DNA of 64,000 nucleotides, from contig CM097885.1 of the NCBI GenBank assembly GCA_044892525.1, forward strand, positions 21,516,001-21,580,000, written 5' to 3'. The translations under genes and the position numbers were made by a program. Below, piece by piece: positions 16,188 to 40,546 of this stretch. The notes beneath the pieces are model-generated. The model searched no databases. It saw only the letters and a program-made list of their open reading frames with translations, and was not told where the DNA came from. The stretch is from Schmidtea polychroa (Eukaryota). Position 1 is the stretch's first letter. Each line of letters opens with the position of its first letter.

Positions 16188-16396
16188 CTCGTCGTCAAAA
16201 TTTTGTTTTTGCAAATTAACATTCAGTTGCGATTTTATTAAACTTTGATTTTAGTGATAATTATTTCAGTCCTTTTAATAAATCATCTTGTGTATTGCGT
16301 GCTTAACATCCGAAACTATGTTTATTTATAATATTGATTTTATTTTATAATTGAATGAATAGTATGCTGCAAGAATATAATCGTTGAATTTATCTA

Positions 16397-16867
16397 GTGT
16401 TCAGACTATTGGAAAATCTGCGAAGAGATAGGGCAGAAGCTCAAAAACAGTCCGAGGAGCTCCGCATACGAGTAGACAAGCTCAAGGGACGGTGCCGGGA
16501 ACTAGAAAGCACCTGGTTTAGTCCCGAGGATATGAAAAAGAAGGTGGCGCAGGTCCTTCAACTGCAGTCTCAAGCCGCGCAGGATCAGATGGAGATCCGG
16601 GCACTGAAGCTCCAGCTCCGCGCGCTAGAAACCGAGCGAAATGAACAAGTAGTTCACGGAGCCGCCATAAGCCAAATCCGGCCGTTGACCGTGGAACTAG
16701 CAGCAATATACCCCCCGGCCGCGAAAGAGAAACCCAAAAGAAAGCGGTTAGGCCGAAATATTCGGGAAAAATTGAAGAAAGCTAGACTGGCCGAATACGA
16801 GCGACAAGCAAATTCGTCACTAGCAGCTGCGACGGAATTGGCCAGTCCTACCAATAAGCCTGTTTGA
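16397..16867 (+). CDS. LTR-encoded coiled-coil protein with a basic NLS-like patch (start uncertain)
   Basis: Heptad-rich helix and KPKRKRLGR; opens at an acceptor-like tctag and has no early ATG. Confidence 0.6.
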   Translation: MFRLLENLRRDRAEAQKQSEELRIRVDKLKGRCRELESTWFSPEDMKKKVAQVLQLQSQAAQDQMEIRALKLQLRALETERNEQVVHGAAISQIRPLTVELAAIYPPAAKEKPKRKRLGRNIREKLKKARLAEYERQANSSLAAATELASPTNKPV

Positions 16868-17272
16868 ACTTATATTCGGTTTTAGGCGTTTGTAGTATTT
16901 TTATGTATTGTGGTAGTCTTCAAATAATATGTTCCTTGTTAACATACTGCACGTTTTGTAGGGATAAAATAATGACTAGTACAGTTTATGATTGTCTGGG
17001 AAATGAGAGTTTGTGCATAAGATTGGGAAAACAATTTTGATAAAGGGACCTGAGAAATCGGACACACACCTCCTATCGGTAGTCCGTGAACCCACGGAGT
17101 ACTCGACAACTATAATGCTTTGATGCGCTCACTTTTTGCGAGTACTCAACCCTTGGTACAGTACCAACGTTGATCACTCAACGGGTACCAAGCGGAAAAA
17201 CAATGTTGTATTTTGGGTTACGCTGGTAACAGCACTCAATCATTCAACCACCAGTAACCCACCATACAAATT

Positions 17273-17290
17273 TGGGGGCTCAGCCGGGAT
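17273..17290 (+). promoter_or_regulatory. Primer-binding site complementary to the tRNA-Pro 3' end
   Basis: TGGGGGCTCAGCCGGGAT matches 16/18 of the classical tRNA-Pro PBS TGGGGGCTCGTCCGGGAT; it lies 8 nt downstream of the 5' LTR. Confidence 0.9.
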
Positions 17291-17989
17291 CTTGAAAATT
17301 TAATTGGTGAAAGAACCCGAGAATAGATATAATAGAGAGAGTAAAAGCGGATATAAAGTGATATGCATTCAAGACCGAGCAAGTTGTTTTCCCAAGCGCT
17401 TAAACTTAGTATATGGATATGCGAATATGATAAAATGTATGTAGAATGTCTAAATGAGTGATGGAAGTTTTAAAGTATGACGACATATGAATGTATTGAA
17501 AGTGGGTATGAGAATGCTGTACGAATAACTTAGTAATAGAATGAATGAGGATAAACGAAAATTAAAACGAAAACAAATTATAATAAAATTGTAGATAGCA
17601 ACGATTAATAAAATGTAAATATAAGGAAATAATAAAAATTTAAAAATAGGGAAAAGGGGGGATAGCACGCTAATAAAGATAGAACAAATAAACAATGAAA
17701 TTAAACTTAATCAGAAAACGTGTAAAATATGGCGATAAGGAATGGGATATGGGTTATATATAATTAAAACGATTGTAATAAAATCACAAGATCATGAAAG
17801 AAATGTGCGCGGAATAGAGCATTAAACAGAGGGAGACGGGGTTGTTAAGGGTAATAAGTAGAATGTAAAGGTTTATCGAAGCACTAATAAAATAAAGTAT
17901 TCTGGATATTAGGGGGAAAAACGATAAAGGGGGAAAAATGACGCGGAATATTAATAAAAAGAGAACCTTAATTAATAAATCTTACTTAG

Positions 17990-21281: not shown

Positions 21282-24200
21282 ATGACAGACGGAATTCCAA
21301 ATGTAACAGGGCTAACGGACCCACCGGAAACAAGTAATGTGCACGTCAACATTGGAGAATTCAGAGAGAAATTTCGAGGAGAGCCATTCGATGGAAATAT
21401 AAACCAGCTGGAAACGTTTATAAAGGAATTCGAAGTATACATTACGATATGTCACTGGCCAGACATAGTCGTACGAGAACGAATACCCCTATATCTAAAG
21501 GGAAGCGCCCAAGATGTATACTTGGAGGCGAAATGTGATGCAACTAAGTTGAGAACGTGGAAAGAGATCAAAGAATTTTTAATAAAAACATTCGGTACCG
21601 AAAAAGAGGGAAATCGAAAAATGTTAGACTTTCTGCATCGAAAGCAGAAATATAACGAATCCAACGCACTGTACGCATGCGAATTGAGACGACTAGCACG
21701 AGAAGCCTTCGATTCAAATCAACCAGTTCCGGAAGACAAAATAATAGCCGTATTCGTAGATGGCATGAAACGAGAGGATATACGAGCAACCTTGGGATGC
21801 CGAGCACCAGAGACGCTGGAAGAAGCACTAAAAATCGCTAACAAATGTGAAACCTACTTAACACCAATACAAGTAGCAGCAATGACAGCAGCTCCAGCAG
21901 CTCCAGCGGCAACAGCAACAACCACAAACAACCAAGTCAATAATGCAAATCCAGTAATGAATCAATTCATCCCAGGATCGCAACAGTTGTTCAAAACTCC
22001 ACAAACAAGAAACCAAAACAATGGAGGTAATATTCAAAATTTTACTAATAATTTCAGGAACAACGACATCAACAATCGAACGTGCAACATATGCCAACGA
22101 CCAGGGCATTGGAGCAATGAATGTTATAAAGCAAGGATGTGTCAAAAGTGTGGGAGAAGAGGCCACACGGAAAATGTCTGCAGAGGACCCATGATGTCTA
22201 TGAGCAGAGGAGGAACCAGAACCTGCTACAATTGTAATCAGCCTGGACACATGGCAAGAGAATGCACGATGAGAACCAAACCAAATCAACCAGGATCAAA
22301 CAATCCAGTTCAGAACACACAAATCAACCTCATGCAGGAAATCGAACAATTAAAAGATATGATCCTGCGAATACCGACTAATAACCAACAACAACGAATC
22401 AACATGATGCAGAGCACCGAGGAAATCCGGAACCAACCAAGTAAGCAACAACAAGATCAGCAACGAGTCGAATGGCAAAGATTACAAAACGAGGAAGCCA
22501 GAGAAATTCAAGAAAGATGGAAACAACGGGAAGCGAATCCCGGAAGAATAAATATGATGAGATTAACAAATAAAGAGGAATCGCACACTGCGGAGCAGTG
22601 TGTTAACAACGACGGGAGTGAACCGATAATAAACAAGGAGATAAAAACGACAAAAGAAAATGAGATCGATCCACGAACAGAATTGAGCAGTGAAGAGAAA
22701 ATACAATTGATTAAAGAATTTACCAAAGAGGAGAAAGAAAGGAGACAAAAGAGAGATGAGAGTAAAGACGAACCAAAAAGCAATGAGATAGTTACAAAAA
22801 ATCGAATTCAGAGGGTACTACTACAAAAAATCGAAGACAGAATCAAAAACGAAAACCCTACATTAACTGAGGAACAAATAAAAGAAAAAGTGAAAGAGCA
22901 TTGGTTCAGGAAGAATGAGTGGTTTGAAAAGAAGGAACCACATACCAAAGCTAAAATAAACATGCTGAGACAAATGCGGAGCGATCAGACGGATCAGGAA
23001 GATGAGAAAAGTGAGGTGAGCAGCCTGGGAGGCGAATTATTTCAGTCAAGTGAGGAAAATAACGAACCGAAAACACCTCCAAACAGTGAAACACCTCAAA
23101 GTAGTGAGGAGAGTGAAAATGATGACATGAAATCAATGATAGAAAAAGATGAAGAAGAGATATTCGAGGAAATTCTCGACACAGTAACAGAAATAGAGCG
23201 AAATGAGAGCTACATCAACGAGTTAACATACAGAAAATGCTTAAAACTTATAACTCAAGTATACCAGTGTGAAGGAGGTATAATAACGGCAGCATGGAAA
23301 GATTTAGCAACAAAATATAAAGAGAAACTAAAGGAAGCAGGCCCAGATCAATATCAAGTAAGCATTCAACACCCCGAGATTCAGATACAGACTATCGAAT
23401 TAAAAGGAACAAATACCGATGAACTGTACAACTGGGTACAGGAAAAAATGGGAACGAGCCATAAAAATAAACAATTATATGTCGATGGTTACAAAGTTAA
23501 AATAGGCATACATTTGGTAGATGCGATGATATGGCCAAACGAAACTAACATCTTAACCTTAGAGAAAACCAGGGATGACGACTCGGTAGCAGAGATGTTC
23601 AAGAAAATCCAACAAGTGTTTAACAATGAAGTAGAACCAGAATTGGAAAAGATCGAACGAAAAATAATGAAAGAAAATCAAATAATCTTAGTCAAACAAG
23701 CTATCGATCAGACAAGGAAATACATTAATAGATTGAGAGAAAGATGGCCACAACTAATGAAACAATTTGTTAAAGACGTACGAGACACGGAAATTATGAG
23801 ATTCGAAGACAAACGAGCGACAGAATTGATATCTAAATACGGAGAATACGAGAGAACCAAATGCGAGCATGAAACGATAAAAATAAAGGTGAAGTTGCCA
23901 AATGAAGAGAAACAAATAATAGAAGTTAATCCCGATTGCCAAGTTGACGAGTTAGTGCAAATCATAGATCAAGAGATCATCCAAAAAGCTCGAGAAAATA
24001 GTGAGGATGGAATGATCGAAGATGTGATAATAATGTACAACCGGCACATGCTAGAAAGAGGAGACCGAACTGTAATTTACGAACTAGGAATCTGGGAAAA
24101 TGGAGCCGTCATCAATATAATCGCGATGGATGAACCATCTGGTGGGCATAAAAACGCCACGAAAACCGAGCAACAAATTAAAAGATTCCAATGGGGAATG

Positions 24201-27200
24201 AGGGCAAAGATGGATCGAATAATAGATATTTATAACCATTGGCTAAAGGATGATAAACTAAAACTAGCAGCCTTCAATGACGAAGATTGCAAACTGATAC
24301 CATGGAAAAAAGTGTGGATCGAAAGTGAAGCTCGATGGGATTGGGAGCAGCAAAAGTTGGAACCAAATTGGATAGATAATATACCCGAAGAGATCGCAGC
24401 AGCATGGGTAAGAGAGAAACCGATCGATACTTACCAGGATATATTACCACAAGAATTCCAAAATGAATTACCATCAGGAGAAGATGAGGAGATACGAGAA
24501 CCGGTAAGGTTAGCACCATTCACGTGGAAAATTGAGAATTGGATGGAAAAGATAAAATCAGCAAAGGAAGAGAAAATCACACGATTAGTAAGTCCACCGT
24601 TCTACTCAGGATTAGGTGAGTACAAGATGAAATTGCGAATATACCCGAACGGAGACGGGATAGGTAAAGGAAGTTATGTGTCGGCATTCTTCGTCATCTG
24701 CAAAGGAAATTATGACGACAAGGTACCATGGCCGTTTAACAGAAAAGTGACGATAGCAATCGAACCATTGAAAGATAGCCTTAACAGGCATAAAGAAACA
24801 TTGAAACCAGATCCAAGGAGCGCCTGCTATCAACGACCAACAACATCAGAAAATATCGCTTCTGGGACACCTAAATTAATACGTCTAAGTTACATTGAGA
24901 ATGAGCAGTCAAAATTTGTGAAAAACAATGCTATCCAGATCAGAGTAGAAGTTGAAACAGAACAAGAAATGAACCAACGACTGAACATACCAGAAAATCA
25001 ACCGAGAATCTGTATGATGAGGAGAAGAGTGTCTGATTCAGGACATCTACCAATAGACGCCGACGCAGATGAGGAAGAAGCAGCAACATTGTTGGAAGCA
25101 CAAAAATGTAAGGAGTTGATGGAGATATTACAAAACGGGGCGAAAAATCGTCGACGAGCGGTGGTAGAACTAGCAAAATGGATAGCCGAATCATGCAAAA
25201 GGATTCAAAATCTACGAAAGATCGTTAAAGCGATTGAAGAATATCGACGGGTATACGTATGGTACCCTGAACAATTTGGTGAAATCATCCGGAAATGGAA
25301 ACAACAAGAGTGGGCCGAAAACTCACCTGAGAAATATCAATTAAAAATATTCATGCCAGATTGTGAACCAATGGAAAAGGAATTCTATACGACAGCTAAA
25401 GTCAGAGAAGTTAAAAAGAGAATACCTTATGAACTCCCATTCCACTTACAACACGAGGGACGATCATTAGACGACGATATTGAGATTGGTGTGACACCAC
25501 TCCAAGGAGAAATTGTGAACAGATTAACGGTGAGTAAAATTGCAGGTAGAGAGCTAAGGAGAAGAGAGATAAAGCAAAAATCATCCACCCAACAGCCAGG
25601 AAGTTTGGACACACCAGAAGTTCCAAATGCGGTTAGTGAAGTGACGATCGAAACAACGGGAGAAGACGAAATACTGGATGAATTACAAGAGATAGTAGAA
25701 GCAGGCGAGATTATGAGAGCATCGCAATCAGGAGATCTATTTATCGACGAAGGTGAACTGACAACTGATGATTTAGATGGATTTGTATGCGCGCAGAGAC
25801 AACCAGTGGAAACGACGGAAGCCGAGACGGATTTAGATAACGTGGAAAGAGATGCCAATAAAGATGTAACCACAACCGATGAATGGAGCAACTGGAGAGT
25901 AGATCCAGGAGCGACCACGTCAAAAGATACAACTTACAATCCGCCAAAACGGAAAGAAACCGGAACAGCTATGGATCGACGAACAAGAGGAAGACCAAAA
26001 ACAGATAAAGCAGAGATCGAACCAAAATCCAAAGTTCAGGCGCAAATGGAACAGGTAAAAACTAAAATGGATAAACTAAGTGCATTAGTAAAACAAGTTA
26101 AAGTGAAGACAAGCGTCCGAGAACAAGGGACACGATGGATAAATGACCTATTAGCCAACATGTTAGCATTAGCAAATCCAGATGTGAAAAGAGTAATGAG
26201 GAAGGATAATATCCCGACCGAAGCCAAACAATTATGGGCAGTATTGAAACCGATAATAATGAAAATCATGGATAATAAAATTCGATTAACGTTAAAAGAT
26301 CCCGTGGAACTCAGATTAATTGTGGAACATCTATTAAGCAGATCAGAGGACCAAAATCGATTTTTAGTGGGATTAGCATATTTAGTATATAACGTTATCG
26401 GTCAATATAAAAAACGAATGCCAAAATATAACGCAACGGGTTACGAATTCACAGTAACAGAAATAATTAAACGATCAATAGAACCATATATACTTGAACA
26501 AGGGGGATGGAGAAGCTTCATCGAATCAACTGGGAAGAAAGATCAAACGGAAATGATGCAAGCAAAGTTACGCGATTTGCTAACTGAATTCGAAGGAACA
26601 ATCAATATAAACGACCCAAGAGCAAGTCGAAAGGGAATGAATGCCATAATAACCACGATATTGATATGGATGATGTGTATCAAAGGAACGGAGTCATTTG
26701 CAGTATACGACTGCGACAACATAAAAATCCATGAGAAATATTCATTAAAGGATACGGAAGACTGTAAAGCGGCAAACCCAAGAAAATTACAAACAGTCAT
26801 GGCATCAGTCTCGTACAACGTATATCAAGAAGCAGATTTCATCAAAACTATGGTCCAAGAGTGTACGGTAACCAGAAAGATATTCGCACATCACTGCGGT
26901 TCATCCTCACACTCAACAATCATAGAACCAGGATTGGAATCGACAGTAATATTACTATCAAGAGAGGAATGCGAGGAAGGGTTCCGATCAGGGAGAATCC
27001 ACTTAAGGCAAGGGATTGAAATCGCTGCAGAACCAGGAAAAATAAAAACGACTCGCGTATATACGGCGGGCAGAATCACTAAAGGAGACGGAACATGTGA
27101 GACAGGAACATACACCTTGAACGGACAACTGGTTAGTGGAGTGGTCGTAATAGAAAGTTACGAAGCTAAATTGGAAAAGTATCAAGGCTACTTTGACCCT

Positions 27201-30200
27201 GACACGCAAGCAATGAAGAAATACCCAAGCTGTCTCGCATCAGATCGATCATGTTCAACCGGAATGTCAACTCTGGTATACCACGCAGATCAGAAAGTAT
27301 GTCGACTAATGTTACTCAAGACAGCAATATTCGAAGAAATCCAAGGGAAAGTGTACAGTGAACCAAAAGGAGAAGCAGAGAGACGAGCGATGGAAGAATT
27401 GAGAGCAAGGAAAGGATTCAGGGAAGACGTAATAACATCGAAATTGGAATCGGAAGTAACACCCACAGCGATAATCTCCAAAGACGATGGAATAGGAATG
27501 AGGTTCATAAAGAACAAAATGGTGAGTAAATGCGATGAGATGGTGATCAGCACCAATTATAAAGGGATCTACTTGTCGCGGAGAACCCTAGCAAATGCAG
27601 TCGGAAGACTAAGCGAAAAGGATGTCAAATTATATTTATACGCTAATAATAAGATGGATTTCTTATATCACAGAGGATTAACATCCACGGAAAAAGTCTA
27701 CCATGATCTGTTAAGAAACGATTGCCTGCTCAACAAAGAAATATTGAGAACAAAATTAGCAATGGCGATTACAAATCCAGATAACGCAATTCCACTACTA
27801 CCATTACAGGAAGGATATTTCGGACGAATCGTGGGCGAAGTGATGTACACCTACCAATGCAAAAAGATAATGGCAAGATTGCCGGAAAACCCTACAATAC
27901 CAAGGGATAAGTGTGCAAACGAACTCGAAATTATTCACGAAGGTAAACCCAGGTTTGTGCAAGCAGTCACTAGGATAATGAACCCGGTAGGGTTTCAGCC
28001 AAATCTGTTTAATTGCAGTAATGCATATGGACCAATGTATGAAAAAGAAGATGGACAATGGGTTCAATTTCCAAGTAAAACAATCGTAGTGACACCCAAG
28101 AAATTTGGATTGACGGAACTAACAACAGAATTAGAGTTCAAGCCGATAGACGTATCACAGAGTGGATTATATACACCAAAAGATCTTGAATCAGCAAGGG
28201 CCCACATGTTATTCCCAGCACACAGACAAGCGATCCTATCAAATATAGTGACTATTTCTGGAGGAAATAATTATGGGGGGAGCCCAAATTACGAGCTATT
28301 ATTATCACCAAGTCACTATCAACAAGCAACAGCAAACATGATGAAGGCTATGTGGGGTCGATTTTTGGTATTTGGCCAAATGATGGCAGGAATACTCGGA
28401 ATTATTCTGATAATACAAATAGTCAGAGTAATACTAACCCAGATGCTAGCATGTTTTGACATCTATAAGCGCGAGAGAAAAGTAAATTGGAAACTTGCAA
28501 TTGGATTCTTACCGTTCTTAGCGAAAACAATGGTGTTGCATGGACACTCAAAGGATATTCATCGAATAAAAAGATTGTTGAAAATACTAACGCAAATGAA
28601 AGGGACAGACGAAGAAGTCGGACGTAAGTTCAAAGTGATAATGAGATTAGAAGCAGAAAGAACTCAAGAGAAAGCAAAAAGAACCGGGAAGTGGAAAAAG
28701 TGGATGAACCTCAGACGAGACGATGATAGTGACAACGACAATGATGATTTCAACGACGATGATAATAACCAAGGAGGAGCAATGTTGATAAATAAAAATA
28801 CAGCCACTTGGGAAAACGAAAAAATGAAACCATGGGGATCACCGTATTCACAGACCCCATATTTACAAGCACCAACTAATGGACCAATGCGACGACCAGG
28901 AACAATGAGAGAACGGATAAGAATGGGAACCGGAAGATTACCCATACCGAACATTTATCCAACAGCTTATGAACCAAATTGGGCAGCAATGGATCCAACG
29001 ATGATCAAACAGGCTAAAAGTGTAGAACAAGAAGTGGAGACACGAACGATTGCGGTATTGCAGACACCAGCCGGACCATCATTAACCATCACGGTCGAAG
29101 TAAACGGAATAGAAATGGATGCAATGATCGATACCGGAGCAAATATTTCGGCAATAAATATGAATATGCTACCAGGCAGACTATGGCCATGCATTGAAGA
29201 GACAACCATGGATGTAATAACATGCAGCAAACAATCCATAGCGGTGGTAGGAAGAGTATGGTCAACGATTGAATATAAAGGGGTTAAAGTTACAACGTAC
29301 CTCGCAGTCATTAGACAGCTAAGCGTATCATGTATAATTGGAACAGATGTAATGCCGGAATTATTGAAAGAAATTGTGATTGATTTGAGTTCCATGAAAT
29401 TAAAAGATAAAACTGGACAGATATGCACAATGAGAACAGAAGTGAGATGCTCCGAAAAAATGATAATACCAGCACGTACCCAGACAATATGTTATGTCAA
29501 GGTCGATAACGAAGCCAAAGGAGATATGATATTTGAACCAAGTCAAAAATTCGAGAAGAGAAGGGAGCTGCCATTGGCAAGAGAAATTGTCAGTATAAAT
29601 GAGGATAACGAGATACCCATCAATATCACCAATTTTGATGAGGAAGATAAAGTAATCTACGAAAACGAGAGACTTGGAAAACTCACACCAATGATGAACA
29701 TTGAGCTACCGGAGATAAAAAGCGAGGGAGCAGACGAAAAAGAATTATGGACCATCGATAGCGAACTCCTAAATAAAGACGAAAAGGAACAACTCAGACA
29801 ACTACTGATTGAGTTTAAAGAAATTTTTGCGGCTTCAGATTTGGAATTGGGTACTAGCGATGTAACTCAACACATTATACCATTAACAGATGAGACACCC
29901 ATAACGTTAAGACCATATCGATTGGCTGAAGCACAAAAAACGGTAGCAGAGGAAGAAGTACAAAAGATGTTAGATGCTGGGGTAATAGAACCTAGTTGCT
30001 CACCATGGCAATTCCCAGTGGTAATGGTCAAAAAGAAAGATGGCACACAGAGATTTTGTATTGACTATCGGAGGTTGAACGCAGTAACAAAAAGAGATAC
30101 ATATCCACTGCCAGACATAAACGAAATGTTACAGATGTTGCATGGAGCAGCATACTTTACATCTTTAGATCTAAAGAGTGGATACTGGCAAATTAAAGTT

Positions 30201-33200
30201 AAAGAGGAAGATAGAGAAAAGACAGCCTTTACCATCGGAAAAGATTTATATCAGTTTAAAAAGATGCCATTTGGATTAACAAACGCACCTGCTTCGTTTC
30301 AGAGATGTATGAACTTTGTGACACACGGGATCAAACAATGTATGGTGTATATCGATGATCTGTTAATTTATTCAGGTACTTTCGAGCAACACTTAATCGA
30401 CATCAGAAACGTATTCATAAGACTGAAACAATGGAAGCTGAAATTGAAACCGTCAAAATGCGACTGGGCAAAGGAGAGAGTCACATTTTTAGGACACATT
30501 GTGTCGGCAAAAGGAAAAGAACCAGATCCGAGAAACGTTGAGAAAATAAAGAATTGTCCGATACCAAAAACCGTGACTCAGGTACAAGAATTTCTGGGAT
30601 TATGCGGATACTACCGCAAGTTTATCAAAAATTATGCAACTATCGCAAAACCAATTCAAGAACTAACAAAAAAAGATACTCCATTTTTGTGGGAAAGAGA
30701 ACAGCAAATAGCATTCGAATCGTTAAGAGATAAACTAATAGCCTCACCTATTCTAATACACCCAGATTTTAAAAAGCCTTTTCTACTAGCAACCGATGCC
30801 AGTGGATATGCATCAGGAGCTGTGCTAGGACAATGGGATGAGGAGAAACGAGAAAGAGTCATCGGATATTATAGCAAGACGTTCAAAAAGCACGAAAAGA
30901 ATTACTCGGTCACAGAAAGAGAAGCCTTAGCAATAATTCAGGCGATAAAACATTTCAAATATTTATTGTGGGGACACGAGATAATTATTACTACAGACCA
31001 TCAACCTCTAGTTTGGTTGGGCCAACACAAAGAAGCATCTAGCCGATTGATGAGATGGGCAATGCAGTTACAAGAATATTCCCCATACATCAAATTCAAG
31101 TCAGGAAAAGCAAACGCAAATGCAGACTGCATGTCGAGATTTGTATTTGAAGAACTCATGGATCATGACGTCAGACGAATATGCCTGATAATCGCGGAAG
31201 ATATCGATTTTACCAATCTAAAGAACGAACAAAAGGAAGACAATGAATTAAAACTAATAATTGAGTTCCTGGAAAAAAACGATATGAAAATATTCAACAA
31301 CGATGATCGACTAAAAGAACACATGGAGAAAAATCGTCACAGATATACGATCGAGAAAGGATGGCTATTGGTAATGGATGGCGACAAACGATTGATGTGT
31401 CTACCAGAAAGTAGACGGAAAGCAATTATGATTCAATACCACGATGGTAAATTGGGCGGACATATGTCAGCCAAGAAAACAGAAGCAAGGCTCAAACAGA
31501 AATATTACTGGCCAAATATGAGCGATGACGTGAAAGAATGGATAAAGAACTGCCTGATATGCGCAACCAGAAAAACAACGGGCAGTAAACTAAAGCCACC
31601 ATTGAAACCAATGCCGATACCGCCAGAACCGATGACAATGATTGCAATGGATGTAGTTGGACCACTACCAGAGACTAACAGTGGAAATGTGTATATATTG
31701 GTAATAACTGATTATCTGACTAAGTTCCCTGAAGCATTTGCGATGCCAGACCAGAAAGCACGAACGGTTGCAAGGATATTAGTGGAAGAGATCTGCTGCA
31801 GATATGGAACACCAAAACAAATCTTAACTGACCAAGGAACTAATTTCATGAGCGAGATAATAAATGAAGTGACAAATTATTTTAGAATTGCCAAATTGAG
31901 AACCTCACCATACCACCCGCAAACGAATGGTCAGACAGAAAGATTTAACGGCATACTAATAGACATGATGTCCAATTACGTGAGTAAACATCAAAAGGAC
32001 TGGGATGAATATATTAAGTTGTGTCTAATGGCTTATCGAATGTCAATACACTCAGCAACGAAAATGAGTCCGTTTAAACTCATGTATGGAAGGGAATGCA
32101 ACATGCCGATGGATCTCGAATACCAACCGCCAATCTCACAATATATGGAGATAGATGATTATGTGACAAAGTTCAAGGAGAGAATGCAAGAAATATGGAA
32201 AACCGCAGGGATGAACATCCGATTCAACCAAGAGAGTTATAAGGAATTACATGATAAAAAGAAGAACGTGCAAAACCATCAATTTAAAATCGGAGATTGG
32301 GTTATTATAGAAACACCCGAATTAATCCCAGGAACAGCAAAGAAATTACAACGTAATGGCAGAGGGCCATATGAAATCATCTATGTAAACGAGAACAACG
32401 CTAGAGTGAAGTTGGTTAACAATCCACTAATTAGACCCATTTATGTGAATACATGTCGATGCAAAGCAGTAGCGAAAACTGCCACTAAAGACCCAGAAAC
32501 AAGAAGGATAATCACGAGATCACAAACAAATGCCACAACGGAACCAGAAGTAAGCGGTAGATTAACTAGATCACAGACAAGACGAATATTCATGTTGAGA
32601 GGAGAAACAAGCAGCAGCGCCCATAAAGGAACTGAAGCAGAAAGCGAAGCTGACGCAATGGCAAGGAGCCAAGCAACATGGAATATGACAATAAAAATAG
32701 CACGAGAAATTGTACCAGAATGGGCCGATATAACCAATAAATACCAAGTATTGGGCAAACTAATGTTAGTAGCAGAAAGATATGCGAAAGGACGAAGATA
32801 TGCCGAAGGATTACAAATACCGACTCAAATATATGAACTAATCCGGAGATTACCAATCATGTTCCTAACAAGTGATTTGAGTAATAACTGGCCAATCCAT
32901 CATGCAGTGAAAGCAGGACAAGAAAAACGAGCTTTAGAGATTATACGAATAATGGAAAACTGCAAACAATCAACAAACGTCAAAAACAGTAAAGGAAAAA
33001 CTCCACTGATGAAAGCCATAGCAATAGGCGCGTCAAGAGATGTACTCAGAGAATTATTAAGAACGGGATCCACGCTGAAAGAAAAAGACAACAAACAACG
33101 AACCGTATTACGTTATGCCGTCAGGTCAAAAAGACCTAGTATAGTGAACTTTATCACAGGAAATGCAACAACCGAAGAAGCCGAGGTGTTGGGACAGAGC

Positions 33201-35348
33201 ATTGAACCAATTCTGGAAGCCATCAGAGGAAACTTAGACAGAACCGCAGCAATATTAATCAAATGGAAACAAAACGAATTAAGAGCGGAAGTAATTGATA
33301 TAAATCAATTCCAAAACAACGAAAATATCGTACTAAGAAGCGCCATATACTCAAGACCACCAATGCCAAAAACCATTAAAGCAATATTACAGAGAAATAG
33401 AACAGAATTGACAGGTAATTGGTGGGAATGCACAAAAACACATGCGATGAAAAAGCAACTAGAAATACTAGTGTGGGAATGGCACCGGAAACAACGGAAA
33501 TATCAAGGAACCAAAGAAGAACGAGAAAGTATCCACAACGACAAAAAAGAGATAATTAAAAAATACGAGGAGATGATCAAAGCAGCAAATGTCGAGGACG
33601 ACATTTTCAGGAAAACCCCGGGTGAGAGGAATGACGACGACGACGACGACGAAAGGATGGGGGATAACGATAACAACCCAGAGGAAAACGACAGAGAACA
33701 GAATCCGGAAGGCGGAGAAACAACGAGTGATGATGAGGAATTGGAAGAAGACGAAGAAGACCAATGTCGAGGTGAAGATCAAGGATTCGACAAAACGGAG
33801 AACAAAAAACGAAAGTCCCCACTACATAGCATAGTGTGTCGAAATCAAATCCAGCCAATCCTACTACAAAGAATATTTATAATATTAACATCCATCTGTT
33901 TAACAGAAACAAAAAATATAAGAATCGTAAGAGAAGCTTCCCAAGAAGGTGAAGCATTTATGATAAAAGTCAGTGATTACGACGGAAATGCCGTCGGAAT
34001 ATGTGTGCAACTAATGGAAGGAACAGGAGTAAGTTGTGATTTCAGATCGATAACAAAAGGAAAGATTTTTAGCAGCCAAAAAAGAGATCCCAGGCTATGT
34101 GGAGATTATGACATCTGTAGAGACATATCAACAGAGGAAATGGAGCTAGAAAGAGCCAACGAAACCGGAGTACATTTTCAACTCAACATTTTGGAAGAAG
34201 GTATCGAAATAGAAGATAAAGGGAGTCGATCAATTACACATGTATGCATCAGAGAAGACAGAGACATATGCATAATAACTGATATGACACAAGACCACAA
34301 ATTCTTCTGGGGAGAGGTCAAACCAAATACCCCTACTGTGGTATGCGCAGGAACACAAGGGATAGTAGTATGTAAAGGAACAAGAACTGCACCAAGAAAA
34401 GACAAGCCAAAGAGTATGGCAATGAAACAAGATCCATTGAGGGGGATAGCAACCAAGAAGCCAAACAAATCAGTTAGTACAAAAACAACAACAGAGCAAA
34501 ATCAAACCGAATTAATAACAACAACAACATGGATTAACGAAGTAATTAAAGACGAAAGACGGGAAGTGCAGATAACTATTAACCTCAACAAGAAAGGTGA
34601 AGAGGTAATTACAGTCAAAAACCAGGAAGGAGAACCAATCATAAGGATATGTGTAATGGATAAGACGGGAATAATCGACTGTACAACAACACCGATAGAC
34701 AAAGGTACAGACGTTAAAATGGAGACAGGGAAACGGAAAGAACGATACCAAGTATGTATCCTTAAGAAAGGAAGAGGAACCAGCGTATGTCAACCAATAA
34801 CTCGACAAAAACCCCAATTAATAAACATACCATGGATACCCCGAGATCAAGAAGGGGGAGAGAAACGGGAAAATCACAGTCACCTAACAGAAAAAGAGAA
34901 GGAACGATTACATCAAGCATTCAAGAAAATCAAAGCACCAGAAACAAATACCACAGGTAGTACAATATTAACGACAGAAAAAACAAATAATGGAACAACG
35001 ATCATCACAAAGATGATATGGATAACTAGCGCGATAGTAAGCACGATAATAGCGTTAGCAATGATTCAGTGGATAAGAACCACCAAAAGATGTAAACAAA
35101 AACCGAGAAACCAAAGAAAATGGCCCAAAGTGGAAAAATTTGAATACGGTATTCCAACAGAGAATCTGAATCTAGAAGAATACGAGGTGGTAGAGGATCC
35201 CGGATCCAGCGGATTGTGGATGTCGGAACTACCAAGAATACCCACACCGAACGAATGGACACACGAAGTCGATATATACCGAATAACGGACGAAAGATAT
35301 GGGGGAATGCGCACGCTGCATTCCGGCCCCATGGCGACACTGGTATAA
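21282..35348 (+). CDS. Giant single-frame Gag-accessory-Env-Pol-accessory polyprotein (~4,688 aa from the first ATG)
   Basis: Uninterrupted frame 21060-35348; first ATG at 21282; domains are listed separately below. Confidence 0.95.
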   Translation: MTDGIPNVTGLTDPPETSNVHVNIGEFREKFRGEPFDGNINQLETFIKEFEVYITICHWPDIVVRERIPLYLKGSAQDVYLEAKCDATKLRTWKEIKEFLIKTFGTEKEGNRKMLDFLHRKQKYNESNALYACELRRLAREAFDSNQPVPEDKIIAVFVDGMKREDIRATLGCRAPETLEEALKIANKCETYLTPIQVAAMTAAPAAPAATATTTNNQVNNANPVMNQFIPGSQQLFKTPQTRNQNNGGNIQNFTNNFRNNDINNRTCNICQRPGHWSNECYKARMCQKCGRRGHTENVCRGPMMSMSRGGTRTCYNCNQPGHMARECTMRTKPNQPGSNNPVQNTQINLMQEIEQLKDMILRIPTNNQQQRINMMQSTEEIRNQPSKQQQDQQRVEWQRLQNEEAREIQERWKQREANPGRINMMRLTNKEESHTAEQCVNNDGSEPIINKEIKTTKENEIDPRTELSSEEKIQLIKEFTKEEKERRQKRDESKDEPKSNEIVTKNRIQRVLLQKIEDRIKNENPTLTEEQIKEKVKEHWFRKNEWFEKKEPHTKAKINMLRQMRSDQTDQEDEKSEVSSLGGELFQSSEENNEPKTPPNSETPQSSEESENDDMKSMIEKDEEEIFEEILDTVTEIERNESYINELTYRKCLKLITQVYQCEGGIITAAWKDLATKYKEKLKEAGPDQYQVSIQHPEIQIQTIELKGTNTDELYNWVQEKMGTSHKNKQLYVDGYKVKIGIHLVDAMIWPNETNILTLEKTRDDDSVAEMFKKIQQVFNNEVEPELEKIERKIMKENQIILVKQAIDQTRKYINRLRERWPQLMKQFVKDVRDTEIMRFEDKRATELISKYGEYERTKCEHETIKIKVKLPNEEKQIIEVNPDCQVDELVQIIDQEIIQKARENSEDGMIEDVIIMYNRHMLERGDRTVIYELGIWENGAVINIIAMDEPSGGHKNATKTEQQIKRFQWGMRAKMDRIIDIYNHWLKDDKLKLAAFNDEDCKLIPWKKVWIESEARWDWEQQKLEPNWIDNIPEEIAAAWVREKPIDTYQDILPQEFQNELPSGEDEEIREPVRLAPFTWKIENWMEKIKSAKEEKITRLVSPPFYSGLGEYKMKLRIYPNGDGIGKGSYVSAFFVICKGNYDDKVPWPFNRKVTIAIEPLKDSLNRHKETLKPDPRSACYQRPTTSENIASGTPKLIRLSYIENEQSKFVKNNAIQIRVEVETEQEMNQRLNIPENQPRICMMRRRVSDSGHLPIDADADEEEAATLLEAQKCKELMEILQNGAKNRRRAVVELAKWIAESCKRIQNLRKIVKAIEEYRRVYVWYPEQFGEIIRKWKQQEWAENSPEKYQLKIFMPDCEPMEKEFYTTAKVREVKKRIPYELPFHLQHEGRSLDDDIEIGVTPLQGEIVNRLTVSKIAGRELRRREIKQKSSTQQPGSLDTPEVPNAVSEVTIETTGEDEILDELQEIVEAGEIMRASQSGDLFIDEGELTTDDLDGFVCAQRQPVETTEAETDLDNVERDANKDVTTTDEWSNWRVDPGATTSKDTTYNPPKRKETGTAMDRRTRGRPKTDKAEIEPKSKVQAQMEQVKTKMDKLSALVKQVKVKTSVREQGTRWINDLLANMLALANPDVKRVMRKDNIPTEAKQLWAVLKPIIMKIMDNKIRLTLKDPVELRLIVEHLLSRSEDQNRFLVGLAYLVYNVIGQYKKRMPKYNATGYEFTVTEIIKRSIEPYILEQGGWRSFIESTGKKDQTEMMQAKLRDLLTEFEGTININDPRASRKGMNAIITTILIWMMCIKGTESFAVYDCDNIKIHEKYSLKDTEDCKAANPRKLQTVMASVSYNVYQEADFIKTMVQECTVTRKIFAHHCGSSSHSTIIEPGLESTVILLSREECEEGFRSGRIHLRQGIEIAAEPGKIKTTRVYTAGRITKGDGTCETGTYTLNGQLVSGVVVIESYEAKLEKYQGYFDPDTQAMKKYPSCLASDRSCSTGMSTLVYHADQKVCRLMLLKTAIFEEIQGKVYSEPKGEAERRAMEELRARKGFREDVITSKLESEVTPTAIISKDDGIGMRFIKNKMVSKCDEMVISTNYKGIYLSRRTLANAVGRLSEKDVKLYLYANNKMDFLYHRGLTSTEKVYHDLLRNDCLLNKEILRTKLAMAITNPDNAIPLLPLQEGYFGRIVGEVMYTYQCKKIMARLPENPTIPRDKCANELEIIHEGKPRFVQAVTRIMNPVGFQPNLFNCSNAYGPMYEKEDGQWVQFPSKTIVVTPKKFGLTELTTELEFKPIDVSQSGLYTPKDLESARAHMLFPAHRQAILSNIVTISGGNNYGGSPNYELLLSPSHYQQATANMMKAMWGRFLVFGQMMAGILGIILIIQIVRVILTQMLACFDIYKRERKVNWKLAIGFLPFLAKTMVLHGHSKDIHRIKRLLKILTQMKGTDEEVGRKFKVIMRLEAERTQEKAKRTGKWKKWMNLRRDDDSDNDNDDFNDDDNNQGGAMLINKNTATWENEKMKPWGSPYSQTPYLQAPTNGPMRRPGTMRERIRMGTGRLPIPNIYPTAYEPNWAAMDPTMIKQAKSVEQEVETRTIAVLQTPAGPSLTITVEVNGIEMDAMIDTGANISAINMNMLPGRLWPCIEETTMDVITCSKQSIAVVGRVWSTIEYKGVKVTTYLAVIRQLSVSCIIGTDVMPELLKEIVIDLSSMKLKDKTGQICTMRTEVRCSEKMIIPARTQTICYVKVDNEAKGDMIFEPSQKFEKRRELPLAREIVSINEDNEIPINITNFDEEDKVIYENERLGKLTPMMNIELPEIKSEGADEKELWTIDSELLNKDEKEQLRQLLIEFKEIFAASDLELGTSDVTQHIIPLTDETPITLRPYRLAEAQKTVAEEEVQKMLDAGVIEPSCSPWQFPVVMVKKKDGTQRFCIDYRRLNAVTKRDTYPLPDINEMLQMLHGAAYFTSLDLKSGYWQIKVKEEDREKTAFTIGKDLYQFKKMPFGLTNAPASFQRCMNFVTHGIKQCMVYIDDLLIYSGTFEQHLIDIRNVFIRLKQWKLKLKPSKCDWAKERVTFLGHIVSAKGKEPDPRNVEKIKNCPIPKTVTQVQEFLGLCGYYRKFIKNYATIAKPIQELTKKDTPFLWEREQQIAFESLRDKLIASPILIHPDFKKPFLLATDASGYASGAVLGQWDEEKRERVIGYYSKTFKKHEKNYSVTEREALAIIQAIKHFKYLLWGHEIIITTDHQPLVWLGQHKEASSRLMRWAMQLQEYSPYIKFKSGKANANADCMSRFVFEELMDHDVRRICLIIAEDIDFTNLKNEQKEDNELKLIIEFLEKNDMKIFNNDDRLKEHMEKNRHRYTIEKGWLLVMDGDKRLMCLPESRRKAIMIQYHDGKLGGHMSAKKTEARLKQKYYWPNMSDDVKEWIKNCLICATRKTTGSKLKPPLKPMPIPPEPMTMIAMDVVGPLPETNSGNVYILVITDYLTKFPEAFAMPDQKARTVARILVEEICCRYGTPKQILTDQGTNFMSEIINEVTNYFRIAKLRTSPYHPQTNGQTERFNGILIDMMSNYVSKHQKDWDEYIKLCLMAYRMSIHSATKMSPFKLMYGRECNMPMDLEYQPPISQYMEIDDYVTKFKERMQEIWKTAGMNIRFNQESYKELHDKKKNVQNHQFKIGDWVIIETPELIPGTAKKLQRNGRGPYEIIYVNENNARVKLVNNPLIRPIYVNTCRCKAVAKTATKDPETRRIITRSQTNATTEPEVSGRLTRSQTRRIFMLRGETSSSAHKGTEAESEADAMARSQATWNMTIKIAREIVPEWADITNKYQVLGKLMLVAERYAKGRRYAEGLQIPTQIYELIRRLPIMFLTSDLSNNWPIHHAVKAGQEKRALEIIRIMENCKQSTNVKNSKGKTPLMKAIAIGASRDVLRELLRTGSTLKEKDNKQRTVLRYAVRSKRPSIVNFITGNATTEEAEVLGQSIEPILEAIRGNLDRTAAILIKWKQNELRAEVIDINQFQNNENIVLRSAIYSRPPMPKTIKAILQRNRTELTGNWWECTKTHAMKKQLEILVWEWHRKQRKYQGTKEERESIHNDKKEIIKKYEEMIKAANVEDDIFRKTPGERNDDDDDDERMGDNDNNPEENDREQNPEGGETTSDDEELEEDEEDQCRGEDQGFDKTENKKRKSPLHSIVCRNQIQPILLQRIFIILTSICLTETKNIRIVREASQEGEAFMIKVSDYDGNAVGICVQLMEGTGVSCDFRSITKGKIFSSQKRDPRLCGDYDICRDISTEEMELERANETGVHFQLNILEEGIEIEDKGSRSITHVCIREDRDICIITDMTQDHKFFWGEVKPNTPTVVCAGTQGIVVCKGTRTAPRKDKPKSMAMKQDPLRGIATKKPNKSVSTKTTTEQNQTELITTTTWINEVIKDERREVQITINLNKKGEEVITVKNQEGEPIIRICVMDKTGIIDCTTTPIDKGTDVKMETGKRKERYQVCILKKGRGTSVCQPITRQKPQLINIPWIPRDQEGGEKRENHSHLTEKEKERLHQAFKKIKAPETNTTGSTILTTEKTNNGTTIITKMIWITSAIVSTIIALAMIQWIRTTKRCKQKPRNQRKWPKVEKFEYGIPTENLNLEEYEVVEDPGSSGLWMSELPRIPTPNEWTHEVDIYRITDERYGGMRTLHSGPMATLV
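21384..22265 (+). other. gag: Gag capsid-like domain and three CCHC zinc knuckles
   Basis: PFDGN..F..EF, YLKGSA, TW..IKE, Q...ES...Y, FVDGM, P.TLEEA; knuckles CNICQRPGHWSNEC, CQKCGRRGHTENVC and CYNCNQPGHMAREC. Confidence 0.92.
24519..24956 (+). other. TRAF-type MATH domain inside the polyprotein
   Basis: FTWKIENW...SPPFYSG..YKMKLRIYPNGDG.GKGSYVSAFFVICKG.YD..VPWPF.RKVT. Confidence 0.92.
26637..28540 (+). other. Envelope-like glycoprotein (chuvirus G / class III fusion-like) with internal signal peptide and TM anchor
   Basis: Signal-like MNAIITTILIWMMCIKGTES, then AVYDC..YSL....C..VYQ..V.EC.V...HCG..SHS and a Cys-rich ectodomain, then W.RFLVFGQMMAGILGIILIIQIV. Confidence 0.75.
29080..32470 (+). 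other. pol: Pol: aspartic protease, RT, RNase H, integrase
   Basis: IDTGA (29130) and IIGTD; LDLKSGYWQ, MPFGL and YIDD (30348); TDAS, EREALA, TDH and NADCMSR; HHCC zinc finger (H..GH..CLIC), MDVVGP, TDQG and GQTERFN. All catalytic residues are present. Confidence 0.98.
32883..33270 (+). other. Ankyrin repeats (about 3-4) downstream of integrase
   Basis: WPIHHAVKAG, NSKGKTPLMKAIAIG...LLRTG, DNKQRTVLRYAV, PILEAIRGN. Confidence 0.85.
33858..35348 (+). other. C-terminal type I membrane protein module
   Basis: Signal-like RIFIILTSICLTET, paired-Cys beta-rich repeats, Thr-rich stalk, TM MIWITSAIVSTIIALAMIQWI followed by a basic stop-transfer and a tail. Confidence 0.7.
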
Positions 35349-35496: not shown

Positions 35497-35952
35497 ATGA
35501 ACCAGAGAAACGAAGAGCAAGAACACCCAAATGGGATACCACATATTGTTGAAGTAAGAGAACAGCCGCTTATGAATGTACATCCAGTAGACATGATGGA
35601 AATGAACGTGCCAAACCAGCCGAGTCAGCCAACAGGATCCATGTGGAGGGCACAGTGTGAATTAATGACCCAATTGACAAATCAGACTCAAGAGCACTGG
35701 GTACGAAACCAAACGGCGTTGATAGAGAGTATTAATAGAAATGCAATATATATTACAAAAATAGAGGAACAACACCAAATAATCGCGCAACTAGAGTATA
35801 ATAACAATCAGTTAATAAGCCAAATCAGATGGCAAGCGGAAGAAATTAGAAGGTTGCATGAAAATCGACAACATGATGATATTACCAGTTTAGTCGAGTG
35901 GATGACCGGGTTACCAGGAACAGGGGAACCGGACTCGACGGTAGATGTGTAG
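35497..35952 (+). CDS. Accessory 151-aa coiled-coil protein, unknown function
   Basis: Intact ORF with the element's codon bias and cassette-type flanking motifs. Confidence 0.7.
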   Translation: MNQRNEEQEHPNGIPHIVEVREQPLMNVHPVDMMEMNVPNQPSQPTGSMWRAQCELMTQLTNQTQEHWVRNQTALIESINRNAIYITKIEEQHQIIAQLEYNNNQLISQIRWQAEEIRRLHENRQHDDITSLVEWMTGLPGTGEPDSTVDV

Positions 35953-36041
35953 GAGAAAAAGGAGTGAAATGTAAATAATCCTGTAAATAAATAGAGTTAT
36001 AATCAAGTAGAAATCCCAAGATTAAAAATCATCATTGTAGA

Positions 36042-37466
36042 ATGCAAAACAAAGCAGAGGAAAACCGGAGAGAAGCAGAGGAACAAAAGATTAACTATGA
36101 GTTGATGAGAAAATACCAAGCCGAGCCGGACGAGTTCGAAGAGAGATTATTATGTGCCGATACAGCATGTAGAAGATTATTAATTGGAGCAAGTCAAACT
36201 CGATGCGGGTGTAGATTGTGCCGAGGGTGTGATATAAGATTAGCCAGACTAAAGCGAGAAACTTGTCCAGGATGTGGAGAAGCATTTAAGTTGGTTCCCA
36301 CTGGTACGATACCGGATAGAGCAATGAACCGAGAAATCAGAGAAGTGAAAATAAGATGCACCCAAAGGTCATGCGAATGGACAGGCCGAGTAAAGGAGTT
36401 AAGAGCCCATACAGACGTATGCGAATATCTAGAATCGGAATGCGAAGCATGCACGGTAAAGTTTTTACGAAAAGAGAAAACCAAACATAAAGGGGAATGC
36501 AAAGCGCGAACGGAAAAATGCGAATTTTGCGGAGAAACTGCTAATTGGAGAGAAATCGAAATGGAACATCGAAACGCAGTAGAAAGACGGATTTGCGACG
36601 AATATACAGGGAAATGCCCAAACGAGTGTGGAGAAATTAACAACGTCAGATTAAATGAACATTGGGAGATATGCACGAGAAAAGCAATAAAATGCCCAAT
36701 GGTGACATTCGACTGTAGAGCACAATTACCAGCAGAAGAAATGAAGAAGCATGTGGAGGAGAATACATTCGAGCACATGCAAAAGATGATGAGAGCAATA
36801 GAGTTAACAGCAAGAGCAATTGAAGACGTCAAAGACGAACTCAAATCACATAAAATCATGATAAAAGAAATGCTGAGCTCACAGGAAAGCTTCGAAAATA
36901 CGAGAGAAGCCGTAACACAAAGGATGTTGAAATTAGACGACAAATTAGTCGAAGTAACTAAATTACAAACCAAATGGACTACAAAGGAACTGACAACAGA
37001 GGAACTACCAATACTACCATACATGTGGAAAATCCAAGGAATAACGGAAATAATGGAGCAAGCAAAGCAAGGAATCCAGACAACGATAGTGAGCAAACCA
37101 TTCTACGCCAAGAAACATGGATACAAGATGAAATTGAGATGGTTTCCAAATGGTGAAGGAAAGTTTAAAGATCGGTGCATGTCCATATATATGCAAATTT
37201 GTAAAGGAGATTTTGACGACCTAATAGCATGGCCATTCCGACATCGATTAAAAATATCTCTCTTAGGAGCAAAAAAGACACATATAATGTGTTTTCGAGC
37301 ATCCAGTCCAGCAGGGAATAAACCGATTACAGAGGTTAATCCTGCGGTAGGAGTAGCAGAGTTTATGCAGCTATACCAATTTAACGAAGGGTCCTACATA
37401 GAAAAGGACACTATATTCTTCCTAATCGAACTAGATGAGGAAGGACCAACAATAGAAATACGATAG
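36042..37466 (+). CDS. Full-length TRAF-like protein (RING, zinc fingers, coiled coil, MATH), intronless
   Basis: C..C..CGCRLC..C..CPGC RING; C...CEWTG....L..H...C TRAF zinc fingers; YMWKI...SKPFY...GYKMKLRWFPNGEG...KGDFDDLIAWPF. Confidence 0.95.
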   Translation: MQNKAEENRREAEEQKINYELMRKYQAEPDEFEERLLCADTACRRLLIGASQTRCGCRLCRGCDIRLARLKRETCPGCGEAFKLVPTGTIPDRAMNREIREVKIRCTQRSCEWTGRVKELRAHTDVCEYLESECEACTVKFLRKEKTKHKGECKARTEKCEFCGETANWREIEMEHRNAVERRICDEYTGKCPNECGEINNVRLNEHWEICTRKAIKCPMVTFDCRAQLPAEEMKKHVEENTFEHMQKMMRAIELTARAIEDVKDELKSHKIMIKEMLSSQESFENTREAVTQRMLKLDDKLVEVTKLQTKWTTKELTTEELPILPYMWKIQGITEIMEQAKQGIQTTIVSKPFYAKKHGYKMKLRWFPNGEGKFKDRCMSIYMQICKGDFDDLIAWPFRHRLKISLLGAKKTHIMCFRASSPAGNKPITEVNPAVGVAEFMQLYQFNEGSYIEKDTIFFLIELDEEGPTIEIR

Positions 37467-37606
37467 ACGGATAGAAGGGAACTGTAAATATTTTGTAAAA
37501 ACGATGTAAAGTAAATATAAAGTTATTGTATACAGTAAAGTAACGTGCCAAAACCATAAAAATTAGAAAAAGAAAATGTAAAAAGAAATGATGAAATTTA
37601 TTATAG

Positions 37607-38785: not shown

Positions 38786-38867
38786 CAAAAATTAAAATTC
38801 CGTGTATAAAGTGTAGATAATAAATGTATGAAATAATAGTGGTAGTAATAGTGTAATTATTTAGACA

Positions 38868-40466: not shown

Positions 40467-40498
40467 TCGAAGGGAGATGTTGCCTGTAAATAAGAATG

Positions 40499-40544
<46 letters not shown>
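40499..40544 (+). repeat. 46-nt poly(A) tract between accessory ORFs
   Basis: Pure A run starting 33 nt after the stop at 40466. Confidence 0.9.

Positions 40545-40546
<2 letters not shown>

Follow-up and report, generated by a model that had tools for sequence, protein, structure and literature searches.

Burro (GYPSM1) is a Gypsy-like element of the planarian Schmidtea mediterranea that exceeds 30 kb and is present in thousands of copies (Arkhipova & Yushenova 2019, PMC6431247). As described in that paper, its first open reading frame (ORF1), of 4,873 aa, encodes in its first part Gag with three CCHC knuckles, MATH_TRAF_C, a SUMO-like motif, BCL2 and env, and in the remainder protease (PR), a dUTPase-like motif, reverse transcriptase (RT), RNase H (RH), integrase (IN), ankyrin and BIR; env is placed "in-frame between gag and pol" and its region matches fusion glycoproteins of arthropod and fish mononegaviruses (PMC6431247). 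Here we analyze an element of comparable organization in Schmidtea polychroa, contained in a stretch of 64,000 nucleotides (GCA_044892525.1, contig CM097885.1, positions 21,516,001 to 21,580,000 of the forward strand; hereafter the window), and in particular the envelope glycoprotein (Env) segment found at 26637-28540 of the window, inside its ORF1. Taken as a whole, this segment is likely to be the Env of a Burro-type Ty3/Gypsy endogenous retrovirus, made within a polyprotein of ~4,700 aa that would cross the membrane of the endoplasmic reticulum (ER).

Other described systems share some of these properties. Ty3/Gypsy elements with a GAG-ENV-POL order and a gB-type Env have been reported in Nematoda, Bryozoa and Platyhelminthes by Chary & Hayashi (2026, PMC13524379), who argue for an ancient association with env; six S. 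mediterranea elements, with copy numbers of 45, 215, 3, 8, 1 and 1, are listed there as ENV_HSV. Anakin and other mosquito BEL/Pao elements are likewise long terminal repeat (LTR) retroelements with a chuvirus-type glycoprotein (Dezordi et al. 2020, PMC7642597; cited in PMC12440569 and PMC13524379). However, they belong to another superfamily, and their env is described as an acquired gene and not as an in-frame internal domain flanked by Gag and PR (PMC7642597). With regard to expression, BURRO1 is described as highly abundant and active, with RNA in differentiated cells and enriched in the intestine; it is repressed by SMEDWI-2, and expression in stem cells is seen only on removal of several PIWI genes (PMC8532177).

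The element in the window resembles Burro in its size of more than 30 kb, its giant ORF1 with the published domain order, its accessory BIR ORF, its in-frame env and its high copy number. Compared by description only, the published ORF1 has 4,873 aa versus 4,791 aa (stop to stop) here, and the 2019 text ties env to the class I gypsy Env through HHpred whereas a class III fold was found in the present analysis (PMC6431247). With the elements of Chary & Hayashi it shares a Ty3/Gypsy pol, a gB-type Env before pol and many near-identical copies (PMC13524379). As judged by eye, the window Env is not among the six listed, the closest being Smed_errantivirus_6 (~70%), and the Env of a second family from the same assembly (family 2, described below) is ~98% identical to the Smed_errantivirus_2 Env fragment. 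Taken by themselves, these literature matches point to S. mediterranea or a very close relative as the host. The terms 'in-frame', 'single ORF', 'fused' and 'polyprotein' are absent from the main text of PMC13524379, and LTR and primer-binding site (PBS) are given as 'none' for the Schmidtea elements, whereas LTRs of 4.75 kb could be defined here.

The in-frame env was thus published in 2019, and its assignment to the gB type followed in 2026. The novelty implied by a sequence-only reading of this DNA is overstated, since the in-frame env was already reported for Burro (PMC6431247) and the gB-type GAG-ENV-POL order for Schmidtea (PMC13524379). The present analysis adds an independent confirmation, a fold-level class III assignment for this family, an intact copy with its LTRs, target-site duplication (TSD) and age, the finding that an internal signal is conserved over 15 polyproteins, a four-segment topology model and a tail-anchor idea. 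In most retroviruses and errantiviruses env occupies its own frame 3' of pol; an env lying between gag and pol forces another expression logic, with an internal signal, a membrane-tethered Pol and a 1:1 stoichiometry.

The Env segment and its predicted fold

A single frame without stop codons extends on the forward strand from 20973 to 35348 (4791 aa, or 4688 aa counted from the first ATG at 21282), and three CCHC knuckles are visible in its translation. The Env segment corresponds to ORF aa 1889-2522, from the Met of a hydrophobic segment to beyond the transmembrane (TM) helix. It begins with the signal-like stretch M-N-A-I-I-T-T-I-L-I-W-M-M-C-I-K-G (aa 1889-1905; 13-residue Kyte-Doolittle peak of 2.47), whose ATG is at nt 26637, and continues with the Cys pattern ..AVYDC.., ..SL..C.., ..HHCG..SH.., an ectodomain of ~560 aa with 14 Cys, and the TM helix F-L-V-F-G-Q-M-M-A-G-I-L-G-I-I-L-I-I.. 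(aa 2464-2495), the 19-residue peak of which (2.53) is the highest in ORF1. A D-T-G motif is present 3' of Env, at ORF aa ~2716. The sequence-only reading had announced a signal-like segment, these Cys motifs, an ectodomain and an FG..AG..GI helix upstream of a DTG protease, and every one of them was found where it had been placed. In the Pfam matches, RT occupies ORF aa 3019-3177 and RNase H aa 3240-3369; the order PR-RT-RH-IN, the Gypsy-type RNase H and the H2C2 integrase domain are those of Ty3/Gypsy elements (Metaviridae), as are the TG..CA LTR ends and the short TSD. The claim that a Ty3/Gypsy-type element carries Env in frame, with Gag before it and PR after it, is borne out by the Pfam order as well.

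The Env segment alone matched the Pfam family PF24664 (Monjiviricetes_fusion) in two stretches with 239.2 bits for a cut-off of 27 (E 8.3e-71), and the whole ORF1 matched it with E 9.8e-68. When 1.84 billion representatives were scanned in full with HMMER, 996 relatives were found at E<=1e-3, of which 485 reached E<=1e-10 and 42 reached E<=1e-30. The best of these are long polyproteins, followed from E ~1e-40 down by stand-alone proteins of 610-720 aa, including the glycoprotein of a chuvirus, Tacheng tick virus 4 (E 1e-36), and a cluster within a beetle genome. In an alignment of 101 sequences, 14/14 ectodomain Cys are at least 90% conserved, and sequences down to 28% identity retain the class III ectodomain with its 14 Cys as well as the central helix and the TM. 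The type I layout of PF24664 proteins (signal, C-terminal TM, short tail) is also seen here by hydropathy. Combined, these sequence comparisons give a match far beyond chance. A word-index protein search with Env found no match in the near length class, which reflects a limit of sensitivity because the full HMMER scan found 996 relatives. A sequence search of the PDB gave only a chance match (E 1.7), so that kinship to solved structures is visible at the level of the fold only.

Relative to the G proteins of chuviruses (Jingchuvirales), the segment shares the hidden Markov model family, the Cys framework, the length, the signal/TM layout and the best matches among predicted structures. It differs in having only ~20-29% identity with them and in being part of a retroelement polyprotein, whereas chuvirus G has a gene of its own in a negative-strand RNA genome. 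That the segment might be a chuvirus itself was considered and ruled out, as the ORF that contains the domain also encodes RT and IN and belongs to an LTR retroelement, not to a negative-strand genome with L and N.

The alignment of 101 Env sequences was used as input for AlphaFold2. The model obtained (mean pLDDT 87.3, pTM 0.64) shows long beta hairpins, a central helix of 48 residues (model residues 341-388) and the TM within a long helix (model residues 567-622). In a Foldseek search against the PDB, herpesvirus gB from at least 8 viruses ranked first (E 1e-14, probability 1.0), and 119 matches had E<=1e-3. In the VIA comparison, all 50 rows listed were herpesvirus gB, with alignments of ~400-436 residues spanning model residues 26-565; the best row reached Z 10.9 with a root-mean-square deviation of 8.0 over 418 aligned residues. 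Among the predicted viral structures of BFVD, chuvirus and chu-like glycoproteins came first (E 2e-40 to 1e-33, TM-score 0.55-0.63), followed by rhabdo-like G proteins and then by gB. According to this model, the Env domain is a chuvirus-type, herpesvirus-gB-like class III fusion glycoprotein, which would be expected to act in fusion. The likeness to chuviruses proposed by the sequence-only reading is supported both by the Tacheng tick virus 4 match and by the rank of chuvirus G in the viral fold search, and the AlphaFold-Foldseek comparison it had suggested did recover a class III fold. Compared with herpesvirus gB, the multi-domain fold with its long central helix is shared (VIA Z ~10-11), whereas identity is 9-12%, and gB is triggered via gH/gL, none of which was identified here.

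A class I Env of the gypsy/baculovirus-F type can be set aside almost completely, in spite of the 96.7% HHpred match to gypsy Env given in the 2019 paper (PMC6431247): the fold searches returned only models of gB, chuvirus G and rhabdo-like G, the ectodomain has neither a furin site nor an internal fusion peptide, and the Schmidtea elements are classified as ENV_HSV by Chary & Hayashi (PMC13524379). Regarding the furin-type site, a motif scan found no R-x-K/R-R between aa 1906 and 2463, as is expected for class III.

Membrane topology and expression of the polyprotein

The topology of ORF1 was read from Kyte-Doolittle hydropathy alone. Averaging over 19 residues gives three segments above 1.4 (aa 2470-2488, 4293-4311 and 4681-4699), and averaging over 13 residues adds the signal-like aa 1891-1903 and a helix within the BCL2-like part. 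The four ORF1 hydrophobic segments alternate as signal/TM/signal/TM, and the same series is present in family 2. This predicts that Gag, PR-RT-RH-IN and ankyrin are cytosolic and that both Cys-rich modules, Env and a second one at the C-terminus, are in the ER lumen. The sequence-only reading had the chain enter the ER and return to the cytosol with Pol first tethered to the Env tail; the alternation of the four segments agrees with it in leaving Pol on the cytosolic side, by hydropathy only. Keyword searches on Burro env returned nothing on its membrane topology, nor was any discussion of it seen in PMC6431247 or PMC13524379; no search was targeted at signal peptides or topology and most subscription journals were not covered.

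The following course of events can be proposed. The Gag, MATH, ubiquitin-like and BCL2-like parts would be made first, in the cytosol. The internal signal (aa 1889-1905) would then direct the growing chain to the ER, where the ectodomain of ~560 aa would be translocated until the TM helix (aa 2464-2495) stops transfer; PR-RT-RH-IN-ankyrin would be made in the cytosol and Pol would stay tethered to the Env tail until the protease of the element cuts between TM and PR. Signal peptidase would free the Env N-terminus, and the second signal/TM pair near the C-terminus would do likewise for the second glycoprotein-like module. Env may in this way let particles from differentiated cells enter other cells. 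Polyproteins of the flavivirus and pestivirus type use internal signal and stop-transfer segments. The predicted chain resembles them in its cytosolic capsid, internal signal, lumenal glycoprotein and return to the cytosol (by hydropathy here), and differs from them in the lack of homology and in that the downstream cut is proposed to be made by a retroviral aspartic protease.

Several observations concern the internal signal. Its Met is 25 residues before the first conserved Cys, and in stand-alone homologues the N-terminus is mostly 20-30 residues before it. A hydrophobic core (11-residue peak of at least 2.15) is found just 5' of the Env start in 15/15 polyprotein relatives and, in the 12/12 slices reaching the (Y/F)DC motif, lies 5-13 residues before it. 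There is no Met near the signal in 9 of the 15 relatives, which means that the possibility of initiating separately is not conserved, and neither in the window family nor in family 2 is there a stop codon past the Env tail. Because of the Met spacing, the core present in all 15, the 9 relatives without Met and the absence of a stop, we favour use of the internal signal within the polyprotein.

A number of points weigh against this interpretation. The signal segment is a short one that stands out only when hydropathy is averaged over 13 residues, and in the window copy a Met is present at the signal, which leaves room for separate initiation. A short hydrophobic tail segment is found ~30 aa past the TM and is stronger in family 2 (13-residue peak of 2.21); as a second span it could in principle put Pol in the lumen. 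We discount this and read the tail helix as a native cytoplasmic tail, because the stand-alone homologues share the tail motif in the alignment consensus. The ectodomain has a single N-x-S/T sequon in 573 aa (0.17 per 100), unusual for a viral glycoprotein; the C-terminal module reaches a density of 1.5 per 100, and the cytosolic parts have 0.5-0.6 per 100. The Pfam scores of the protease are under the curated cut-offs. Finally, translation of the full polyprotein, its insertion and its cleavage are predictions from the sequence.

Env or Env-Pol could instead come from a subgenomic mRNA that is spliced, trans-spliced or initiated internally, as is usual in retroviruses, the in-frame site being then a matter of genomic economy. 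Planarians employ spliced-leader trans-splicing and, in the window copy, the Met of the signal sits where stand-alone homologues start. We regard this explanation as rather improbable, given that neither family has a stop codon past the Env tail, that 9 of the 15 polyprotein relatives lack a Met close to the signal and that no obvious pyrimidine tract or AG acceptor was seen in the sequence just 5' of 26637. Contigs of four public runs, whose origin from RNA is a guess, were aligned to 16800-36700; small skips occur in the leader, and ORF1 is free of joints. As contigs hide rare spliced forms, starts and strand, no weight was given to them either way, and the start of one of them at 26634 was not counted as evidence. 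It could also be that Env is no longer fusogenic and serves as a membrane-targeting or assembly module bringing Gag-Pol to the ER in an element that spreads within cells only. The single N-glycosylation sequon of the ectodomain and a very high copy number, as in an ordinary retrotransposon, are in line with this, as is the report that BURRO1 RNA interference (RNAi) or RT inhibitors did not rescue the smedwi-2(RNAi) phenotype, a result that does not address infectivity (PMC8532177). The conservation of a whole class III ectodomain with its 14 Cys, central helix and TM goes beyond the needs of an anchor, and loss of fusogenic function seems very improbable to us. The embedded env makes it likely that the giant planarian elements are proviruses and not simple retrotransposons, and bears on the route of a selfish element into the only dividing cells of a fission-capable animal.

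The BCL2-like region directly 5' of the Env signal offers an additional possibility. A profile built from six sequences of this region matched Bcl-xL, Bcl-2 and A1 chains over BH1-BH2 with E 9e-4 to 1e-2, and 59 of the 60 rows listed belong to the Bcl-2 family. Searched as a single sequence, it gave E 0.5-1.5 only, with 35 of 37 matches to Bcl-xL. Pfam found no Bcl-2 family in the segment, and an AlphaFold2 run on the 6-row alignment gave an unusable model (pLDDT 46). The G-G-W motif is invariant in the six aligned sequences and, as a BH2-like motif, was found ~20-55 residues 5' of the Env signal in 6 of the 15 polyprotein relatives (in the slices examined). Cellular Bcl-2 proteins have their tail anchor at the end, shortly past BH2, and for this reason the Env signal may, after cleavage by signal peptidase, stay on the upstream BCL2-like domain as a C-terminal anchor of the Bcl-2 type. 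The combination of a four-pass chain, a cleaved Env signal anchoring the BCL2-like domain and an infectious retrovirus that reaches stem cells is put forward, by analogy, as a tentative and on balance doubtful proposal. If true, it would bring an anti-apoptotic module, a fusogen and a tethered Pol together at one ER site and, with the second glycoprotein, would describe an infectious retrovirus moving from differentiated cells into planarian stem cells.

Copies, relatives and lineage

The window's own assembly (781 Mb) was searched with a 681-aa Env query. Of 2891 first-look candidates 65 were scored, and 65/65 were ~100% identical with no stop in the match, so that the genome of the window holds at least 65 near-identical Env copies. 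Their open frames measured 4791 aa in 43 cases and 4784 or 4788 aa in 8, and were shorter in 14. That the long frame results from an assembly or chance artefact is hardly conceivable: we found nothing that counts for it, the 43 copies with the identical 4791-aa frame are on four large contigs, and divergent relatives keep the same domain order.

A search of the same assembly with the PF24664 model gave 2580 candidates, and the 68 that were scored were all other, better-scoring Env lineages. A frame of 3334 aa recurred in 8 of these 68 loci and defines family 2. Its order, established in one copy by eye and BLASTP, is Gag (three CCHC), BCL2-like G-G-W, signal, Env, TM, PR, RT, RH and IN, with a second signal, ectodomain and TM 3' of IN. 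BLASTP gives 36.9% identity between family 2 and the window ORF1 along 2105 aa, a stretch reaching from the BCL2-like part to the integrase. The C-terminal modules of the two families occupy the same place and show no detectable similarity (E 0.14). As family 2 shares the layout, the in-frame Env predates the split of both families.

More distant proteins were also analyzed. In 12 long relatives, Pfam found PF24664 in 12/12, and PR and/or RT/RH/IN in the same protein in 9/12; the 12 include four with Env-RT-RH-IN, one with CCHC-Env-PR and three with Env only after a long N-terminal extension. A FastTree phylogeny (unrooted, with several long branches) was computed from 115 Env domains with at least 75% model coverage, 40 of 155 matches having been dropped for lower coverage. 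It puts the 14 polyprotein-embedded Envs on one side of a branch with support 99 and the named chuvirus on the other side. Cluster look-ups for the stand-alone sister sequences of this Env clade gave no names. This tree, which is without labelled BEL/Pao Envs, is compatible with one old capture of Env in this retroelement lineage; the independent capture by a Gypsy element that the sequence-only reading had inferred is unproven.

One related protein has an unexpected record. HBK71150.1, an Env-PR-RT-RH-IN polyprotein of 2627 aa, is recorded as a hypothetical protein from a metagenome-assembled genome assigned to Flavobacteriaceae; its source is almost certainly a mis-binned contig of an animal retroelement.

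The element and its other features

The element is 35,061 bp long and intact, with two LTRs and one target-site duplication (Table 1). The LTRs differ at a single position out of 4755 (at 17115), and this near-identity together with the TSD indicates an intact element and a very recent insertion. The element has a G+C content of ~0.39, higher than that of its flanks (0.2-0.3), and is more A-over-T skewed than they are. The LTRs are unusually long, making up together more than a quarter of the element, and contain small ORFs of 83-121 aa.

Table 1. Features of the element and of its ORF1, in positions of the window (aa are those of ORF1).
Feature	Position	Strand	Evidence or remark
5' LTR, 4,755 bp, TG..CA	12510..17264	+	direct repeat of 42816-47570; TSD ATAG at 12506-12509
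PBS-like stretch, TGG-initiated, 19 nt	17273..17291	+	read directly; 8 nt past LTR end
ORF1, single polyprotein	21282..35348	+	open-frame reading, 4688 aa from first ATG
Gag zinc knuckle, best of three CCHC	22218..22268	+	Pfam zf-CCHC E 6e-10 (aa 416)
MATH/TRAF-type domain	24519..24953	+	Pfam MATH_2 E 3.9e-29, TRAF-mep_MATH E 1e-26 (aa 1183-1327)
BCL2-like region	26310..26558	+	BH1-BH2-like, G-G-W; directly 5' of Env signal
Env signal-peptide-like segment, internal, Met first	26637..26687	+	hydropathy
Env ectodomain, chuvirus-type, predicted gB-like class III fold	26688..28361	+	Pfam PF24664, AlphaFold2, fold searches, Cys
Env transmembrane helix (predicted stop-transfer)	28362..28457	+	top hydropathy peak of ORF1; long helix in AlphaFold2 model
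Env cytoplasmic tail and linker to protease	28458..29087	+	conserved short hydrophobic tail helix, basic/acidic runs
Aspartic protease, D-T-G	29088..29363	+	Pfam RVP, gag-asp_proteas (aa 2706-2797), expected place
Reverse transcriptase and RNase H	30027..31079	+	RVT_1 E 7e-35, RT_RNaseH E 3e-38, RT_RNaseH_2 E 2e-34
Integrase, H2C2 zinc domain and core	31404..31919	+	Integrase_H2C2 E 2e-20, rve E 4e-12 (aa 3478-3649)
Ankyrin repeats	32895..33158	+	Pfam Ank_2 E 7.5e-8 (aa 3975-4062)
Second membrane-glycoprotein-like module, C-terminal	33849..35345	+	hydropathy, sequon counts
Six accessory ORFs between ORF1 and 3' LTR	35497..42460	+	ORF list, Pfam
Accessory ORF, 151 aa	within 35497..42460	+	no family match
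Accessory ORF, TRAF zinc finger and MATH, 474 aa	36042-37466	+	Pfam
Accessory ORF, BIR and RING (IAP-like), 392 aa	37607-38785	+	Pfam
Two accessory ORFs, coiled-coil-looking	within 35497..42460	+	no family match
Last accessory ORF, 328 aa	41474-42460	+	signal-like start, TM near C-terminus; no significant family match
3' LTR, 4,755 bp	42816..47570	+	direct repeat; TSD ATAG at 47571-47574

In ORF1, the ~220 aa between PR and RT (29364-30026), the place of the dUTPase-like motif in PMC6431247, gave no Pfam match at E<=0.01, and late-domain motifs (P-T/S-A-P, P-P-x-Y, Y-P-x-L) occur as scattered single matches only, without evident meaning. The C-terminal ~500 aa resemble a second type I glycoprotein with 13 Cys and 6 N-x-S/T sequons: a signal-like segment (33849-33905) is followed by a Cys-rich ectodomain, a TM (35013-35069) and a tail of ~90 aa. 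No relative of this module (33849-35345) was found in Pfam or the Protein Atlas. Downstream of ORF1, the ORFs at 36042-38785 look like captured host genes for cell death and signalling, and ORF1 itself holds another MATH domain (24519-24953). The leader, of ~4 kb between the 5' LTR and ORF1, contains a 131-nt unit present twice in tandem (19876-20137, 98% identical). One contig from the public runs omits exactly 262 nt of the leader (19879 to 20142), which indicates that the copy number of the 131-nt unit varies.

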